The notes below the pieces were generated by a model. The model was not told the DNA's origin. It was given only the letters and a program-made list of their open reading frames with translations, and searched no databases. From an uncultured Solirubrobacterales bacterium (GTDB lineage Bacteria; Actinomycetota; Thermoleophilia; Solirubrobacterales; Solirubrobacteraceae), in the NCBI GenBank assembly GCA_963757235.1, contig CAVWRC010000010.1, positions 218,009 to 282,008 of the forward strand: DNA of 64,000 nucleotides. Direction: 5' to 3'. The translations under genes and the position numbers were made by a program. This document shows positions 32,837 through 46,469 of this stretch, one piece after another (position 1 is the stretch's first letter; each line of letters begins with the position of its first letter).

Positions 32837-33190
32837 ATGCGGACGACCAGCTTCACCCGGACGGTCACCTTCGGCCGTCTGGAGATCGTGTCCTTCACGC
32901 ACTCGTGCGTCTATCTGTCCTTGCTCGTCTGCGCCTTCGTACTCCACAACCCACAGCCCGAGACCTTCGTGCTGGGCCTGGCCCACGGCCTGATTTGGAT
33001 CGGGATGTCGCTGGTGTGCATCGCCGCCGCCCGCGCGCGAATCGTCCCCTACTGGCTCGCCGTCACGGTCGCCGTGCTCGGCGGCCTGGGCCCGTTTGCG
33101 GGCTCGATCGGGTTCGTGATCGAGGACCGGCGGCGTAGGCAGCGCTCGGTTTCCCGGCTACCCTTGAACGCAGCAGATGGCAGTCAGTAG
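32837..33190 (+). CDS. small membrane protein (DUF3817-like)
   Basis: Three TM helices, GLAHG and GPFAG motifs. Confidence 0.7.
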   Translation: MRTTSFTRTVTFGRLEIVSFTHSCVYLSLLVCAFVLHNPQPETFVLGLAHGLIWIGMSLVCIAAARARIVPYWLAVTVAVLGGLGPFAGSIGFVIEDRRRRQRSVSRLPLNAADGSQ

Positions 33191-36100
33191 CGGAACTGTC
33201 CAGGTAGTTATGCCGGCGATGGGTGACTCCGTCGCCGAAGGCACCGTGCTCGAATGGCGCAAGCAGGAGGGCGACAGCGTCCAGGCCGACGAAACGCTCG
33301 TCGAGATCTCGACCGACAAGGTCGATGCCGAGGTCCCCTCACCCGCCGCTGGCCGGGTAGTAAAGATCTACGCCGCCGAAGGCGACACCGTCGCGGTCGG
33401 TGCCCCGCTCGCCGAGATATCGACCAACGGCGACGGCGCTGAAAACGGGTCCGAGGTGCCTGCGACGGGAGTGGGCGTGACACCGGTTTCCGGCGAATCT
33501 CCTCCCGCGACGGCGGCGGAGGCAGTGGCCAGCGCGACCACCGAGGCCGAGGGGGTGGCGGCCGCCCAGGCGTCGACCGGCGAGCTGATCGACATCGTCA
33601 CGCCGACCGGCGGCGAGTCGGTCACCGAGGGCACGATCCTTGAGTGGAGCGTCAAGGTCGGCGACGTCGTCAAGCAGGGCGACACCGTGGTCGAGATCTC
33701 GACCGACAAGGTCGACATGGAGCTACCCGCCCCCGCCACCGGGACGATTGCCGAGATCCTGGCGCAGGACGGAGAGACGGTCAGCGTCGGGCAGGTGATC
33801 GCGCGGATGCAGGCCTCAAGCGGCGCCCCCAGGTGTTCCGCCAGCAACGGCGCACCGGCATCAGGTGCCACGTCGACGGGGTCTGGGACAGCGCCCGTGC
33901 TAACCGACGGCGGCTCGAATGCGTCTCCGGTCGCCCGCCGCGTCGCGGCCCAGCAGGGCGTCGACCTCTCTGCATTGACCGGAACCGCGCGCGGCGGCCG
34001 GATCGTCAAGGCCGACGTGCTCGCGGCCAAGGGAAATGGTGTCCCGCGCGCCCCCGGCGCAACCGCCACGGCGACCGCGCCGGCAGCGGCCACGTCTGAG
34101 AAACCCGCCGGCGCTCAGCTGATCAAGGGCGGAGCGGCCGCACTCGCGCGGTACATGGACGAGAGCCGCTCGATCCCGACCGCGACCTCGTTCCGCACCC
34201 TCACGGTCACCACCCTGGCGCAGCGCCGCGAACAGCTCAAGCAAGCCGGCCTCCGCGTCTCATTCACCCACCTGGTCGCCTACGCGATTGCGCGCGCCGC
34301 GACAGACGACATGGCGGTCATGGCGCACCACTTCGCCGACATCGACGGCAAGCCGCACCGGATCGACGACGGCGCCTGCAACCTCGGGCTCGCCGTCGAC
34401 GTCGAGAAGAAGGACGGCAGCCGCACGCTGATGGTCCCGGTGATCCGGGACGCCGGCCGCCAGAGCTTCAAGGAGTTCCTGGACGCCTACAACGAACTCG
34501 TCGAGAAGGCGCGGACGAACACGCTGACCGCCGACGACCTGACCGGAGCCAACCTGTCGCTGACCAACCCGGGCGGGATCGGCACGATCGCCTCCGTCCC
34601 GCGGCTGATGGTCGGCCAGGGCACGATCGTCGCCACGGGCGCGATCGGCTATCCCCCCGGCCTGGGCGCGATCGGCGAAGCGATCGGGGCCGAGAAGGTC
34701 ATGACCATGACCTCGACCTACGACCACAGGATCATCCAGGGCGCCGAGTCGGGCCGTTTCCTACAGCGGATCGAGGCGCTGCTTGCAGGCGAGGAGGGCT
34801 TCTACGAGCAGGTGTTCGGCGATCTAGGAGTGGCGCTGCCCGCCCTCGCGCCCCCGAAGAGCCCTCCGACCCCGGTCGCCGCCGCCGGCCCGGCCGCCAC
34901 CGACACTGGCGCGCCGCCGGCGCCCGGCGCAATGCCCGACGAGGAGCTGATGCAAGCGGTCCAGGCCGCGACCTCGCTGCTCAAGGCCCACCGCACGCAC
35001 GGGCACCTCGCTGCCCGGCTCGACCCGCTCGGCCGCGAGCCCGAGGGCGACCCGGCGCTCGATCCTCAGCCACTCGGGCTGTCCCCCGAGTTGATGGAGC
35101 GGATCCCGGCCCACATCCTGCGCATGTACGTCCAGGGCGAGAACCTGGCCGACGCGCTGCCCCACCTGCGCGAGACGTACTGCGGGCCGATCGCCTATGA
35201 GATCGAGCACATCGCCTCACATCGCCAGCGGCTGTGGCTGCGCGAGGCGATCGAGTCGGGCCGCTTCCGCCCGCCGCTCTCGACCGACGAGCAGAAGACG
35301 CTGCTGCGGCGCCTGACCGAGGTCGACGCGCTCGAGCGGTTCATGCACAAGGCATACCTCGGCCAGAAACAGTTCTCGATCGAGGGTCTCGACATGACCG
35401 TCCCGATGCTCGACGAGCTGATCCAGCTGTCCGCCACGCGCGGCGCGCGGGAGGTCGTGATCGGCATGGCTCACCGCGGGCGGTTGAACGTGCTCGCGCA
35501 CAACTTGGGCCGCCCGTACGACTCGATCTTCGCCGAGTTCGAGGGCTCCTCGACGCTTGAGCCGATCACCACGATTCCCCATGGCGGCACCGGCGACGTC
35601 AAGTACCACCACGGCGCTCAGGGCGCCTATCAGCTCCCGAGCGGCGAGTCGATCATCGTCCGCCTTGAGTCAAATCCGTCGCATCTGGAGTTCGTGGCCC
35701 CGGTGGCTGCGGGCGCGACGCGAGCGGCCCAGACGACCCGCCAGGGACCGCACGCCCACCGCGAAACCAACGCGGCCGTCCCGATCATCCTGCACGGCGA
35801 CGCGGCGTTCCCGGGCCAAGGTGTGGTCGCGGAGACCCTCAATCTGCAGGCGCTCGATGGCTACACGGTCGGCGGGACGATCCACATAATCCAAAATAAT
35901 CAGGTCGGTTTCACCACCGACCCGGACGACGCGCGCTCGACCACATGGGCCTCGGATCTGGCCAAGGGCTTCGACGTCCCGATCATCCACGTCAACGCCG
36001 ATGACGTGCCCGCGTGCATTGCGGCGGTCCGGCTCGCCTTCGCCTTCCGGCAGGAGTTCGGGCACGACGTGCTCATCGACCTGATCGGGTACCGCCGCTT

Positions 36101-37592
36101 CGGCCACAACGAGGCCGACGAGCCCGCCTACACCCAGCCCGAGATGTATCAGGAGATCAAGAAGCACCCGCCGGTGCGGGAGCTGTTCGCCCGGCAGTTG
36201 ATCGAGGAGGCTGTCGTATCCGAGCAGGAGTCGACCGAGCTGACCGATCAGGTCTGGGAGGTGCTCGCCGAGCAGCACCAGAGGCTCAAGGACCGGATCG
36301 CCGCCGCCAAGGACCTCAGGCACGCCACCGGCGAGTACGAGCTCGACCGCACGCCCTCGCCCGAGGTCAAGACCGCGGTTTCCTCCGACCGCCTCCGGGT
36401 GCTCAACGACGAGCTGCTCGCCGTGCCCGACGGCTTCACGATCCATCCCAAGCTGGTGCGCCAGCTCGAGCAGCGCCGCGAAGTGTTCTCCGGGGAGGGC
36501 GAGGAGGCCGGCACCGGCATCCTGTGGGCGCACGCCGAGTCGCTCGCCTACGCCTCGCTGCTCACCGAGGGCATTCCGATCCGCCTGACCGGCCAGGACA
36601 CCGAGCGTGGCACCTTCAGCCAGCGCCACCTCGTCCTGCACGACCCCAAGACCGGGCAGGAGCACTGCCCGATCCAGCACCTTCCGGGCGCGCTCGCCCC
36701 GATGGAGCTGCACAACAGCCCGCTGTCGGAGATGGGCTGCCTCGGCTTCGAGTACGGCTACTCGCAGGAGGCGCCCGAGACGCTCGTGCTCTGGGAGGCC
36801 CAGTTCGGCGATTTCGCCAACAGCGCGCAGGTGATCATCGACCAGTTCATCGTCTCGGGTCTGGCCAAATGGGGGCAGACCTCGCGCCTCACGCTGCTGC
36901 TCCCGCACGGCTACGAAGGCTCCGGGCCCGAGCACTCCTCGGCCCGGCTCGAGCGCTTCCTCCAGCTCGCCGCCGAGGGCAACATCCGCGTGGCCAACTG
37001 CACTACCCCGGCCCAGTACTTCCACCTGCTGCGACGCCAGGCCCGCGTCGCCAAGCAGCGCCCCCTGGTCATCATGACCCCCAAGAGCCTGCTGCGCCTG
37101 CCTCAGGCCACGAGCACGCTCAAGGAGCTGGCCGAGGGCCGCTTCCAGCCGGTGCTCGGCGAGGGGGACGTGCGCGATCCCGGTCAGGTCAAGCGGCTGA
37201 TCCTGTGCACCGGCAAGATCTACTACGAGCTCGCCACCCACGAGGCGCGCCAGGACAACCCGGCGGTCGCGATCGGCCGGGTCGAGTTGCTCTATCCCTT
37301 CCCGCAGTCCGAGATCCTGGCCCTGGCCGAGAGCTACCCGAACCTCGAGGAAGTCGTCTGGGTCCAGGAGGAGCCGCGCAACATGGGCGCGCGCGCCCAC
37401 ATGGGGCCGCGCCTCATGCAGATCCTGCCCCACCACCTGCGCTACGGCTACATCGGACGGCCCGAGCGGGCCGCCTCGGGCGAGGGCTACCCGGTGGCGC
37501 ACGCCGCCGAGCAGAACCGCATCATCTCGACGGCGCTCAACGCCGGCGAGGCCATCTCGCAGTACCCGCGCAAGTCCCCCGGCGACCGCTAG
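33177..37592 (+). CDS. kgd: multifunctional 2-oxoglutarate dehydrogenase (2x lipoyl + PSBD + E2 + E1)
   Basis: Two EISTDKV lipoyl motifs, ASPVARRVA...GRIVKADV, YDHRIIQG, GMAHRGRLN, HGDAAFPGQG, LPHGYEGSGPEHSS. Confidence 0.95.
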   Translation: MAVSSGTVQVVMPAMGDSVAEGTVLEWRKQEGDSVQADETLVEISTDKVDAEVPSPAAGRVVKIYAAEGDTVAVGAPLAEISTNGDGAENGSEVPATGVGVTPVSGESPPATAAEAVASATTEAEGVAAAQASTGELIDIVTPTGGESVTEGTILEWSVKVGDVVKQGDTVVEISTDKVDMELPAPATGTIAEILAQDGETVSVGQVIARMQASSGAPRCSASNGAPASGATSTGSGTAPVLTDGGSNASPVARRVAAQQGVDLSALTGTARGGRIVKADVLAAKGNGVPRAPGATATATAPAAATSEKPAGAQLIKGGAAALARYMDESRSIPTATSFRTLTVTTLAQRREQLKQAGLRVSFTHLVAYAIARAATDDMAVMAHHFADIDGKPHRIDDGACNLGLAVDVEKKDGSRTLMVPVIRDAGRQSFKEFLDAYNELVEKARTNTLTADDLTGANLSLTNPGGIGTIASVPRLMVGQGTIVATGAIGYPPGLGAIGEAIGAEKVMTMTSTYDHRIIQGAESGRFLQRIEALLAGEEGFYEQVFGDLGVALPALAPPKSPPTPVAAAGPAATDTGAPPAPGAMPDEELMQAVQAATSLLKAHRTHGHLAARLDPLGREPEGDPALDPQPLGLSPELMERIPAHILRMYVQGENLADALPHLRETYCGPIAYEIEHIASHRQRLWLREAIESGRFRPPLSTDEQKTLLRRLTEVDALERFMHKAYLGQKQFSIEGLDMTVPMLDELIQLSATRGAREVVIGMAHRGRLNVLAHNLGRPYDSIFAEFEGSSTLEPITTIPHGGTGDVKYHHGAQGAYQLPSGESIIVRLESNPSHLEFVAPVAAGATRAAQTTRQGPHAHRETNAAVPIILHGDAAFPGQGVVAETLNLQALDGYTVGGTIHIIQNNQVGFTTDPDDARSTTWASDLAKGFDVPIIHVNADDVPACIAAVRLAFAFRQEFGHDVLIDLIGYRRFGHNEADEPAYTQPEMYQEIKKHPPVRELFARQLIEEAVVSEQESTELTDQVWEVLAEQHQRLKDRIAAAKDLRHATGEYELDRTPSPEVKTAVSSDRLRVLNDELLAVPDGFTIHPKLVRQLEQRREVFSGEGEEAGTGILWAHAESLAYASLLTEGIPIRLTGQDTERGTFSQRHLVLHDPKTGQEHCPIQHLPGALAPMELHNSPLSEMGCLGFEYGYSQEAPETLVLWEAQFGDFANSAQVIIDQFIVSGLAKWGQTSRLTLLLPHGYEGSGPEHSSARLERFLQLAAEGNIRVANCTTPAQYFHLLRRQARVAKQRPLVIMTPKSLLRLPQATSTLKELAEGRFQPVLGEGDVRDPGQVKRLILCTGKIYYELATHEARQDNPAVAIGRVELLYPFPQSEILALAESYPNLEEVVWVQEEPRNMGARAHMGPRLMQILPHHLRYGYIGRPERAASGEGYPVAHAAEQNRIISTALNAGEAISQYPRKSPGDR

Positions 37593-37759
37593 TCGCTCCG
37601 CGCGGCCCGCCCCGGGCGGCTCGTCAGGCTCGTAACACGCCGCTCAGCGGCATTTTCTCACCCTGGCTGTCCTTTTCTGGCACCCTTCCGAGCATCGGCT
37701 TTCGTAGAGACGGATCGCGCAGAGACAATTCCCGGCGCCACCTCGCGCCCGCTTTCGGC

Positions 37760-38788
37760 GTGCACGACATGGCGATCGACCTCGGGACCGCCAACACGCT
37801 CGTGTATGTCGGCGGGCGTGGGATCGTGGTGTCCGAGCCCTCGGTGGTCGCCTCCGACGTTGACACCGGTCTCGTCCATGCGGTGGGCGCCGACGCCGAG
37901 CGGATGATCGGGCGCACACCGGCCACGATCGCGGCCACCCGGCCGCTTCGGCACGGGGTGATCGCCGACTTCGAGGTCACAGAGGAGATGCTGCGCTACT
38001 TCATCCGCAAGGTGATCGACCGCCGGATGGCGCATCCGCGGCTGATCGTGTGCGCCCCGTCGGGGGTGACCGAGGTCGAGAAGCGGGCGGTCGAGGAGGC
38101 CTCGCTCGCGGCCGGCGCGCGGCGCGTGCACCTGATCGAGGAGCCGATCGCGGCGGCGATCGGGGCTGGGCTCGGAATCGACGAACCGCTGGGGCGGATG
38201 GTCGTCGACGTCGGCGGCGGCACGAGTGAGATGGCGGTCATCTCGCTCGGCGGGATCGTGGTGTCGCGCTCGGTTCGCGTCGGCGGCTACGAGATGGACG
38301 AGGCGATCACCTCCTACCTGCGCGGCGCCTACCAGCTGGCCATCGGATCGAGGACCGCTGAGCGGATCAAGATCGAGAGCGGCTCGGTAACGCCGCTGCA
38401 TCCCGAAGAGACGATCGAGGTCCGGGGCCGGCACCTGGTGACCGGGCTGCCGACCGCGGTCGAGCTGCACTCGGAGGAGGTCCGCGCCGCGATCATGGCC
38501 CCGGTGCGCGAGATCATGCGGGCCATCCGCGAGACGCTTGAGGAGACGCCGCCCGAGCTGGCCTCGGACATCGCCAAGGACGGGATCCTGCTCGCCGGCG
38601 GCGGCACGATGATTCGCGGCTTCCAGGAGCTGGTGGCCGGGGAGACCGGAATGCCTGTGTACTCGGCCGAGTCGCCGCTGACGTGCGTCGCCTTCGGGTC
38701 AGGCCAGGCGCTCGCGCACTTCGACCAGCTGACTCGGGCGGGCCGCCACCGGGTCCCCAGCCTCACGTCCGACTGGCGCACGGCGTAG
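37760..38788 (+). CDS. mreB: rod-shape actin-like protein MreB/Mbl
   Basis: DMAIDLGTANT, APSGVTEVEKRAV, EEPIAAAIG, VDVGGGT; start at GTG 37760 or ATG 37769. Confidence 0.93.
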   Translation: MHDMAIDLGTANTLVYVGGRGIVVSEPSVVASDVDTGLVHAVGADAERMIGRTPATIAATRPLRHGVIADFEVTEEMLRYFIRKVIDRRMAHPRLIVCAPSGVTEVEKRAVEEASLAAGARRVHLIEEPIAAAIGAGLGIDEPLGRMVVDVGGGTSEMAVISLGGIVVSRSVRVGGYEMDEAITSYLRGAYQLAIGSRTAERIKIESGSVTPLHPEETIEVRGRHLVTGLPTAVELHSEEVRAAIMAPVREIMRAIRETLEETPPELASDIAKDGILLAGGGTMIRGFQELVAGETGMPVYSAESPLTCVAFGSGQALAHFDQLTRAGRHRVPSLTSDWRTA

Positions 38789-44096: not shown

Positions 44097-45036
44097 TGCA
44101 GTCTCTCGGTCGACACCCGGTCCGCCACCGCCCTTTGAAGCGCCTTGACCTCGGCCAGCATCCACGATTGGTAGTCGTAGCCGGGAACTGGCATCGTCTC
44201 GTACACCCCCACGACCGGGATCCCATCCTGATGTGCCGTGGCCAGGAGCGACTGCGTCAGCGAGTCGGTGACCTGCTGGTTGTAGAGGAACACCTTGACC
44301 TTGTGTCCCGAGAACAGCCCGTTCTGGAGGGTCACGTCCTGGGGAGAGGGGTCGACGCCGTTCATGACGTCGGCTTGGAAGGTGAATGGGGTCAGGTTCA
44401 CCGTCCCGGCCGCATCGAGCATGTAGTCGCCGACCGGCTCGGTGGTCGCGACCGCGGTGTGGGGGTATTTCGCTGCGAACGCCTTCAGGGCGGCATACCA
44501 GGGCTGGAGCGAGGCGTCGAACGTCTTCGCGTTGGCCGCGAAGTAGGCGGCGTGGGACGGCTGCGATCGCCGACAGGTCCTCGACGAGCGCTTGCGCGAC
44601 CGCGGGCATCGTCCGCGGCATGTACCACAGGTGCGGGTTCGGCGTCGAATCCGGCAGCGCCGAGCAGCGTCTGGACGTCGATGATCTTGCGCGAGGCGCC
44701 GGGCGAGGCCGACTCGATCTTGTTCATGAACGTGTCGTAGCCGACCCCGTTCTGCACGATCAGCCGCGCCGACGCGACTTCCTGGGCGACGCTGGGGCTG
44801 GCCTCGAACGTGTGCGGGTCGGTGTTCGGGTTGCTCTCGATCGCGCTGACGGCCACGTAGCGCCCGCCGATTTGGGAGATGACGTTCGCGTATTCGTTCT
44901 CTGCGCCGACGGCGACGATCTGGCCGGCCTTGGCGCTCGTCGCCCCAGTCGCGGTCGCTCCGCATCCGGCCGTCGCGACGCCGGCGGCGAGCGATAGGAG
45001 GACCACGAAGGCTGAATATCGGCTGATCCGCTTCAC
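44093..45036 (-). pseudogene. Zn/Mn ABC substrate-binding lipoprotein, doubly frameshifted
   Basis: AGC lipobox, NTDPHTFE, NPHLWY, YNQQVT are spread over three frames; extra bases at about 44658 and 44564. Pseudogene or sequencing error. Confidence 0.8.
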
Positions 45037-45053
45037 GGCACGCTAGTCTAACA

Positions 45054-45073
45054 GAGAATGAGACCGATTCTCA
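45054..45073. promoter_or_regulatory. Fur/Zur-like box
   Basis: GAGAAT-N7-ATTCTC overlapping TGAGA-N5-TCTCA, between the divergent ABC operon and the Fur-family gene. Confidence 0.6.
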
Positions 45074-45111
45074 CTCTTGAGTTACACGACGCTCCGGCCG
45101 CTGGGGCCGAC

Positions 45112-45591
45112 ATGACCAGGACTAACCTTCCGCTGGTGGCGACGCAAACGGAGACCGACTGGGCCGAGCACGCTCGGACCGTGCTTCAGCGCGCCGGCCA
45201 CCATCGCGGCGCCGCGCGCGACAAGCTCATCGACCTGCTGTCCCGCCACGACTGCGCGCTCAGCGCGCTCGAGATCGAGGACGCCCTCGGTCGCGGCCGG
45301 CGCGGCGAGCGGTCGGTGGGGCGGGCCAGCATCTACCGGACCCTCGAGTTGCTGTACGCCCACGACCTGGTCAATCGCGTCGACGTCGGCGACGGGATCG
45401 CCCGCTATGAGACGGCCGACCCGGCCGGTCAGCATCACCACCATCACCTCCTCTGCGACCAGTGCGGCAAGCTCGTGCCGTTCCACGACCCCGCCCTGGA
45501 GCGCTCCATCGACCAGCTCTCGACCCGGCTCGGCTTTCGCACGACCGACCACGAGGTCACCCTGCGCGGGGACTGCCCTGACTGCAGCTAA
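45112..45591 (+). CDS. Fur-family metalloregulator (Zur-like)
   Basis: ASIYRTLELL, HHHHLLCDQCG, C-terminal CPDC. Confidence 0.9.
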   Translation: MTRTNLPLVATQTETDWAEHARTVLQRAGHHRGAARDKLIDLLSRHDCALSALEIEDALGRGRRGERSVGRASIYRTLELLYAHDLVNRVDVGDGIARYETADPAGQHHHHHLLCDQCGKLVPFHDPALERSIDQLSTRLGFRTTDHEVTLRGDCPDCS

Positions 45592-45638
45592 GCGTCCCTC
45601 CGGGAATGATTGGCGGCTTTGACGGCGCCTGAACGCGC

Positions 45639-45700
45639 CTGGGGCCTCCCGCTCGCCCTCACGTACCACCAGTACGATCGGGGCGAGCGGGAGGCCCCAG
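45639..45700. repeat. perfect 20-bp inverted repeat hairpin
   Basis: ctggggcctcccgctcgccc / gggcgagcgggaggccccag with inner cgtac/gtacg stem. Confidence 0.85.
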
Positions 45701-45759
45701 ACACGCCCAGTCACTCGTCAAATTCCACCACTAATTCCCGGACGAACGCTAAGCGTCCC

Positions 45760-46044
45760 AATGGGCGGGCGGGTCCCGATCGTGAGGAGCGGATCCTGGC
45801 CCGGGTGCAGGCGATCCCGGAGGGATTTGTCCGCACCTACGGCGATGTCTCGCCCGGCGCGCCCCGCATCGCCGGCGCGGTCTTGCACAACAACGACGAT
45901 CCGGCCATCCGATGGCACCGCGTGGTCCGAGCCGACGGGTCGCTGGCCAAGGGGGATGAGCAGCGCCGGCGGCTCGAAGCCGAGGGCGTCCCGTTCCGCG
46001 GTTCGCGCGTCGACATGCGGGCGGCTCGCATCCCCGAGTTCTGA
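45760..46044 (+). CDS. alkyltransferase-like protein (MGMT/ATL family), start unresolved
   Basis: IPEGFVRTYGDV, PRIAG, IRWHRVVRADG (W in place of the catalytic C), QRRRLEAEGV. Confidence 0.8.
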   Translation, partial: NGRAGPDREERILARVQAIPEGFVRTYGDVSPGAPRIAGAVLHNNDDPAIRWHRVVRADGSLAKGDEQRRRLEAEGVPFRGSRVDMRAARIPEF

Positions 46045-46469
46045 TGTGGCTTCAACGGGAAATTGGGTTCGGCGCGCGGTCGCGGGGGTTCCATCTCGTC
46101 ACCCGCGAGGTGCTGGACGCGCTGCCCGAGATCGGCGGCGTCGGGGTCGGGCTGCTCCATCTCCTGATCCAGCACACTTCGGCGTCGCTCGCGCTCAACG
46201 AGAACGCCTCGCCGGACGTGCGACGCGACTTCGAGACGTACTTCAACGAGGTCGTCCCCGAGGACGCGCGGTACTGGACGCACACGCTCGAGGGCTCCGA
46301 CGACATGCCGGCGCACATCAAGGCCGCGCTCCTCGGGCCGTCGCTGACGGTTCCGGTGACGAGAGGCGAGCTCGCCCTCGGCACGTGGCAGGGGATCTAC
46401 CTGTGCGAGCACCGCAACCGCGGCGGGTCGCGGCTTGTGGTCGCGACGCTGCACGGCGAGCCCGACTAG
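46044..46469 (+). CDS. YjbQ/UPF0047 family protein
   Basis: HTSASLALNEN, DDMPAHIK, GTWQGIYLCEH. Confidence 0.92.
   Translation: MWLQREIGFGARSRGFHLVTREVLDALPEIGGVGVGLLHLLIQHTSASLALNENASPDVRRDFETYFNEVVPEDARYWTHTLEGSDDMPAHIKAALLGPSLTVPVTRGELALGTWQGIYLCEHRNRGGSRLVVATLHGEPD

Follow-up and report, generated by a model that had tools for sequence, protein, structure and literature searches.

The 64,000-nucleotide window analysed here (contig CAVWRC010000010.1, positions 218,009 to 282,008 of the forward strand; assembly GCA_963757235.1), from a soil actinobacterium of the order Solirubrobacterales (class Thermoleophilia, phylum Actinomycetota), contains a gene that joins the succinyltransferase (E2o) and the decarboxylase/dehydrogenase (E1o) of the complex of 2-oxoglutarate dehydrogenase (ODH) in one chain together with lipoyl domains. 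It raises the question of which partners such a citric-acid-cycle enzyme needs. OdhA and Kgd, themselves E2o–E1o fusions, are without lipoyl domains and borrow lipoyl groups in trans from E2p, the E2 of the pyruvate dehydrogenase (PDH) complex (Bruch et al., bioRxiv 10.1101/2020.07.24.212647). The initial annotation of the locus, which gave this background correctly, proposed that the fusion needs only E3, and that its regulation would differ. The chain unites a full E2o with a full E1o, and on the evidence of its sequence we consider it quite probable that it makes up an ODH complex with E3 as sole partner, without lipoyl domains borrowed from the PDH E2.

The protein is orthologous to a full fusion, 'LB-PS-E2-E1', which Bruch et al. 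(2020) described in three Thermoleophilia genomes and proposed to need no lipoyl domain in trans. The two have an identical Pfam set (PF00364 twice, PF02817, PF00198, PF00676, PF02779 and PF16870), are without PF16078 and come from the same class; nothing essential sets them apart, and the present one adds another ortholog, encoded in the genome of an uncultured Solirubrobacterales bacterium. Since Bruch et al. already gave both the architecture and the same inference of self-sufficiency for Thermoleophilia, neither is new. In full-text literature searches, no other paper mentioning the full fusion and no biochemical follow-up was found, and the 2023 paper on the OdhA structure does not discuss it.

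Domain layout and relation to OdhA/Kgd

The open reading frame (ORF) starts with ATG at 33177 and runs through 1471 codons, with no stop inside, to the stop codon at 37590–37592. Its domain content and length were checked against the ORF and Pfam and are as first annotated in every item: two lipoyl domains (LD), a peripheral-subunit (E3)-binding domain (PSBD), E2o and E1o (Table 1). Biotin_lipoyl (PF00364) is matched twice (whole-protein E-value 9.9e-44), and 2-oxoacid_dh (PF00198) at residues 320–537 (E-value 3.3e-40). The E1o part comprises the modules E1_dh (738–1039), Transket_pyr (1115–1307) and OxoGdeHyase_C (1312–1454). Linkers of ~35 residues on either side of the E3-binding domain consist of 71–83% Ala/Pro/Gly/Ser/Thr, and over all four inter-domain linkers this share is 66–83%. 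The N-terminal E2-docking motif of E1o (2-oxogl_dehyd_N, PF16078) gave no match in the fusion protein at an E-value of 0.01 or below.

Table 1. Coordinates of the fusion gene, its parts and the gene upstream of it in the window (GC3, third-position GC)
Feature	Position	Strand	Residues	Basis
Fusion gene, LD-LD-PSBD-E2o-E1o (full-fusion OdhA/Kgd ortholog)	33177..37592	+	1471 in all	Single ORF, Pfam and NCBIfam domains, GC3
Lipoyl domain 1; lipoyl-lysine K47 (codon 33315-33317), motif ISTDKVD	33198..33419	+	8-81	PF00364 (two stretches), DKV motif
Lipoyl domain 2; lipoyl-lysine K177 (codon 33705-33707), motif ISTDKVD	33588..33812	+	138-212	PF00364 (best stretch 140-211), DKV motif
Peripheral-subunit (E3)-binding domain	33921..34022	+	249-282	PF02817, 1e-12
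E2o succinyltransferase catalytic domain	34074..34811	+	300-545	PF00198; residue alignment to MsKGD (8p5r) and CgOdhA (8p5t)
E2o-E1o junction, Ala/Pro-rich, without the OdhA-conserved PYEPxRW	34812..34952	+	546-592	Alignment, composition
E1o 2-oxoglutarate decarboxylase/dehydrogenase	34953..37589	+	593-1471	PF00676, PF02779, PF16870; NF006914
Upstream gene, small DUF3817-like membrane protein	32837..33190	+	117 in all	Context only; no known link to ODH

Residue roles in E2o and E1o (PMC10415282) were used to read the alignments. The catalytic His/Gln dyad, His316/Gln320 in Corynebacterium glutamicum (Cg) OdhA, is conserved as His517/Gln521 in the motif YDHRIIQG, which MsKGD has unchanged (residues 515–522 of the fusion; DHRIIQG is encoded at nucleotides 34722–34742). 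The residues that hold the succinyl carboxylate, the Ser of PTATS (Ser338) and the Tyr preceding DH (Tyr515), are likewise conserved, as are the Thr of SLTNPG (Thr463) and the Ser of ASVPR (Ser473) at the coenzyme A (CoA) site. The Phe of the terminal helix (GFYEQVF, Phe542), which blocks trimer–trimer contacts, is present too. In E1o, the thiamine diphosphate (ThDP) motif HGDAAF...QNNQ is encoded at nucleotides 35793–35903, and catalytic histidines are found in MAHRGRLNV, DVKYHHG and FGHNEAD by alignment and in PHGYEG by motif.

Residues 285–1455 match the OdhA/Kgd equivalog NF008907 of NCBIfam with 1502.6 bits (curated cut-off 878 bits), over model positions 102–1240 of 1241, and residues 290–1454 align colinearly with two solved structures, at 928 bits with Mycobacterium smegmatis (Ms) KGD (8p5r) and at 851 bits with C. 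glutamicum OdhA (8p5t). A further structure of the OdhA/Kgd type is 2xt6, and solved structures 47% identical to the fusion exist. The E1o models NF006914 (1102.6 bits, cut-off 764) and TIGR00239 (1008.6 bits, cut-off 770) match residues 591–1455. Scores against the canonical SucB E2o models fall below their cut-offs (TIGR01347, 243 against 378 bits; NF004309, 258 against 449 bits).

Like OdhA/Kgd, the protein has an E2o catalytic domain (E2c) fused upstream of E1o in colinear order, and both have the dyad motif DHR[IV]IQG, the succinyl-specificity Ser and Tyr, the terminal-helix Phe, the ThDP site and the catalytic histidines. Identity to the sampled OdhA-type relatives is ~44–52% in E2c and 44–48% in E1. 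The two differ at the N terminus, where LD-LD-PSBD takes the place of the ~100 residues of OdhA that hold the PF16078 helical segment, and at the E2c–E1 junction, which is ~15–20 residues longer than that of OdhA. DHR[IV]IQG was found in 17 of 17 full fusions and 17 of 17 OdhA-type proteins, and in none of 19 stand-alone E2s, which have DHRxxDG or variants of it; on these sequences, the Gln of the dyad is a lineage marker.

The fusion shares with classical ODH (E. coli-type SucA, SucB and Lpd) the chemistry, the overall domain set and the LD-PSBD-core order of SucB. It differs in being one chain with E2 ahead of E1, the reverse of the sucA-then-sucB operon order of its split-gene relatives, in having Gln instead of Asp in the dyad and in missing the N-terminal E2-binding motif of E1o. 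Moreover, the C terminus of its E2c runs on into E1 and is not free, and the trimer–trimer contacts of a 24-mer core are therefore not expected. A second likeness is to the actinobacterial DlaT/'SucB_Actino' type (TIGR02927): residues 9–545 align end to end with a 553-residue LD-LD-PSBD-core chain (9y7v_D, 234 bits), and the lipoyl domains are 53–60% identical to those of DlaT-like stand-alone E2s, compared with 44–49% to those of SucB from the split-gene family f19. The catalytic domain, in contrast, is ~27–32% identical to those of stand-alone E2s, and groups with OdhA E2c on the tree described below.

Partners, arm sharing and regulation

The proposal that the fusion needs only E3 fits all of the features that could be checked: the intact lipoyl lysines, the E3-binding domain, the complete active sites, the absence of PF16078, and a genome with no other E1o and with lipA, lipB and Lpd genes. 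The host assembly (6.3 Mb, 23 contigs, 94% complete) has its sole OxoGdeHyase_C match in the fusion, which is therefore the only E1o of the genome. A search of the genome for a separate sucB or sucA turned up neither. The four other E2s, with one lipoyl domain each, all adjoin an E1 of their own, one in an aceE-aceF-lpd operon and three beside E1 alpha/beta-type genes, and none is linked to E1o. There are two Lpd genes above cut-off, and lipB and lipA lie next to the DlaT-like E2.

Two of these operons have further features. The aceE-aceF-lpd operon (contig C3, L006:4362-10152) is of the homodimeric-E1p type, and its 584-residue Lpd carries an N-terminal lipoyl domain of its own (PF00364, 3.6e-20). 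The E2 of an E1alpha-E1beta-E2 operon (contig C2, L009:4384-7732) is the most DlaT/'SucB_Actino'-like of the genome, and is directly followed by lipB (C2:140818-141297) and lipA (C2:142553-143395), an arrangement that we take to recall the mycobacterial dlaT-lipB-lipA neighbourhood.

With its own lipoyl domains and E3-binding domain, the fusion should not depend on E2p arms, and it is likely to be a self-sufficient ODH needing only E3. In the cycle that we propose, LipB and LipA would lipoylate K47 and K177; E1o would decarboxylate 2-oxoglutarate on ThDP and reductively succinylate a lipoyl arm of the same particle. The arm, on its Ala/Pro-rich linkers, would then swing to the E2o site (His517/Gln521), where the succinyl group would be handed to CoA, and Lpd (E3), docked on the E3-binding domain of the enzyme itself, would re-oxidise the reduced arm with formation of NADH. 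By homology to OdhA, E2o trimers and E1o dimers would probably assemble into a hexamer with 12 arms.

Some points weigh against this reading. Lipoylation, self-sufficiency with E3, the oligomeric state and E3 docking are all features that we infer. The OdhA hexamer geometry may not carry over to the fusion, because the junction is longer, of low complexity and without PYEPxRW. In addition, the genome encodes five other lipoyl carriers (the four E2s and the lipoyl-bearing Lpd), and sharing of arms is conceivable. The fusion might then work inside a mixed assembly, in which its lipoyl and E3-binding domains are shared with PDH or branched-chain complexes, or in which it uses their arms as OdhA does. 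This would be in keeping with the orthology of its E2c–E1 part to OdhA, which acts in a hybrid PDH/ODH complex, and with the resemblance of its lipoyl domains to those of DlaT-like stand-alone E2s, as well as with the many other carriers. We nevertheless consider a mixed assembly unlikely, as the fusion carries everything but E3, and the AceF-type E2 of the genome ends in the canonical ...KRALL; an insertion, associated by Bruch et al. with hybrid PDH/ODH complexes, was not seen in this E2.

A main role other than succinyl-CoA formation, as a decarboxylase or carboligase, or with another 2-oxoacid such as 2-oxoadipate, appears less probable still. The top NCBIfam model bears the name 'multifunctional oxoglutarate decarboxylase/...', and the E1 part is matched by structures of DHTKD1-type E1 as well. 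However, the E1o equivalog scores (NF006914, 1102 bits; TIGR00239, 1008 bits) are far over their cut-offs, E2o keeps its succinyl-specific Ser and Tyr, and the genome has no E1o besides the fusion. Own lipoyl arms and an E3-binding domain would, moreover, be sensible only for the full dehydrogenase reaction.

The expectation that regulation would differ from that of the hybrid PDH/ODH supercomplex, the other part of the initial proposal, finds no support, as a search for GarA/OdhI revealed a GarA/OdhI-like forkhead-associated (FHA) protein encoded in the genome. Its best solved relatives are GarA (6i2q, 1e-23) and OdhI (2kb3, 2e-20), and it consists of an N-terminal zinc ribbon, a Thr-rich stretch (TTTATY), which presumably sits where GarA has ETTS, and an FHA domain. 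Downstream of the FHA domain, the same open frame continues without a stop into an Rv1828-like MerR domain (contig C20, ~45026-46267; L093:1255-2493, + strand). The frame holds one fused regulator (FHA-MerR) or else two genes that overlap, and its arrangement, we assume, recalls the garA-Rv1828 neighbourhood of M. tuberculosis. Among the GarA/OdhI contacts on the E1o of the fusion, the Lys (Cg K484) is kept and Q488, A791 and E801 are not; these positions differ between Cg and Ms too, and the main contacts are to backbone atoms (PMC10415282). Because the FHA protein is encoded, FHA-type control of the fusion may persist.

Distribution and origin of the fusion

Domain architectures were surveyed across the phylum, as the initial annotation had suggested. 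Among the 401 sampled Actinomycetota genomes, 212 have a match. Fifteen of the 401 are unpublished (G226, G001, G048, G148, G174, G336, G082, G120, G268, G318, G239, G018, G088, G391 and G343); all of these are outside Thermoleophilia and count only towards the figure of 212, with no part in the alignments, trees or full-fusion claims. Conservation of the fusion extends across the class. It is present in every sampled genome of four Thermoleophilia families (f1–f4), in open frames of ~1420–1540 residues, and all 16 of the f1–f4 loci examined encode one or two lipoyl domains, PSBD, E2c and E1 in one frame.

Among the matches listed, which include metagenome and genome proteins, more than 100 homologs are 70–82% identical to the N-terminal 600 residues of the fusion. 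All 106 listed homologs of at least 1400 residues are multi-lipoyl (two lipoyl domains in 103, three in 3) and have the same catalytic motif. The three genomes of Bruch et al. are thereby extended to all sampled genomes of four families, with one, two or three lipoyl domains. Full-length matches are confined to genomes of the same class among the matches listed. The 80 closest loci in species-representative genomes are nearly all from Solirubrobacterales/Solirubrobacteraceae, a few being labelled only Actinomycetota and one Planctomycetota. The last (L080; CAVYEC010000003.1, a 4.78-Mb contig), titled 'uncultured Planctomycetota bacterium', encodes a full fusion with 70% identity to that of the window over the N-terminal 608 residues; the record is probably mislabelled, unless the gene was transferred.

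These data bear on whether separate sucB and kgd/sucA genes were joined artificially, through mis-assembly or a sequencing frameshift, which would have undone the initial annotation. The probability of this is, in our view, negligible. The frame is unbroken, and its GC3 (0.91 over the complete ORF) is uniform and typical of real genes of this 70% GC genome. More than 100 independent assemblies contain this fusion, and single-contig genomes (G311 and G131) with full-length matches are among them. The E2c has the OdhA-type Gln and not the Asp of stand-alone E2s, and a simple read-through cannot explain the fusion, because the order in the split-gene relatives of family f19 is the opposite one. 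Nothing was found in favour of an artefact, save in-frame stops in three homologs from draft genomes of the same class (G103:C122:17267-21526, TAG; G388:C2:109387-113775, TGA and TAG; G333:C24:8647-12285, TGA), which may be sequencing errors or pseudogenes.

In a quick tree search with E2c sequences, full fusions and OdhA-type proteins form one clade against the 19 stand-alone E2s, with 100% support in the Shimodaira–Hasegawa-like approximate likelihood ratio test (SH-aLRT). The common Gln dyad and this clade support a single origin of the E2c–E1 fusion, with a common E2c ancestor for the full fusion and OdhA. Within the clade, OdhA is monophyletic (100%) and nested inside the full fusions at only 81% SH-aLRT, the full fusions being unresolved or paraphyletic. 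In the E1 tree, which has no outgroup from outside the phylum, full fusions group with the E1-only proteins of family f7 (99%), and OdhA (100%) and f19 (100%) are separate. Full-fusion E1 is correspondingly 52–59% identical to E1-only proteins and 44–48% to OdhA E1.

In the f7 genomes, which also belong to Thermoleophilia (G249, locus L146; G223, locus L147), E1o stands alone and carries PF16078; an OdhA-type (DHRxIQG) E2 domain was found nowhere in either of them. The E2 part may have been lost secondarily, or this condition may be an earlier one. An OdhA-type relative and the f19 E1-only proteins carry PF16078 too, and it is absent from the fusion and from a relative with one lipoyl domain. 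Two directions of change may be considered. Either the full fusion is ancestral, and OdhA arose from it when an E2p-docking helix replaced the lipoyl arms, or an OdhA-like protein was later 're-armed' through recombination with a DlaT-like E2, which gave the full fusion. The evidence conflicts: the E2c tree nests OdhA in the full fusions, whereas the occurrence of PF16078 argues the other way.

Gene context and implications

The database gene call for the same protein is 1460 residues long and starts at M12, which would remove the first strand of lipoyl domain 1. This alternative was rejected and the start at 33177 stands, because the residues upstream of M12 are conserved among homologs (MAV(D/S)T..VQVV ahead of 'MP') and several homologs have Leu or Ala at the position of the downstream Met. 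The end of the DUF3817-like gene and the start of the fusion gene share 14 nucleotides, which suggests that the two are co-transcribed. No ODH-related neighbours are present within the window, the neighbouring genes encoding DUF3817, FAD oxidase, TetR, sulfotransferase, PMT_2 and ABC-3 transporter proteins. The ~1.1 kb 3' of the fusion gene (37593–38698) holds no confident gene; a 270-residue ORF on the minus strand (37658–38470) is without a match in Pfam, and its GC3 falls short of the criterion.

As the idea of a self-sufficient fusion is already in the literature, the contribution of the window is breadth of evidence and not discovery. Added here are the status of the fusion as the only E1o, the pairing of the other E2s with E1s, the presence of lipA, lipB and two Lpd genes, the GarA/OdhI-like protein, the common E2c ancestor and the longer junction. 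We give about even chances to the fuller picture of an autonomous ODH particle without an E2 core, an OdhA-like hexamer with 12 swinging arms of its own and direct docking of E3, which possibly marks a key stage in how the actinobacterial two-in-one enzyme evolved. If the fusion does need only E3, it would offer a natural control when asking whether a hybrid PDH/ODH supercomplex is obligatory for OdhA/Kgd, and would be the simplest known 2-oxoacid dehydrogenase assembly, made of two gene products with no large E2 core. It would then be attractive for cryo-electron microscopy and for the study of lipoyl-arm recognition by E1o. The fusion also bears on the evolution of actinobacterial ODH, a drug-target pathway in mycobacteria.

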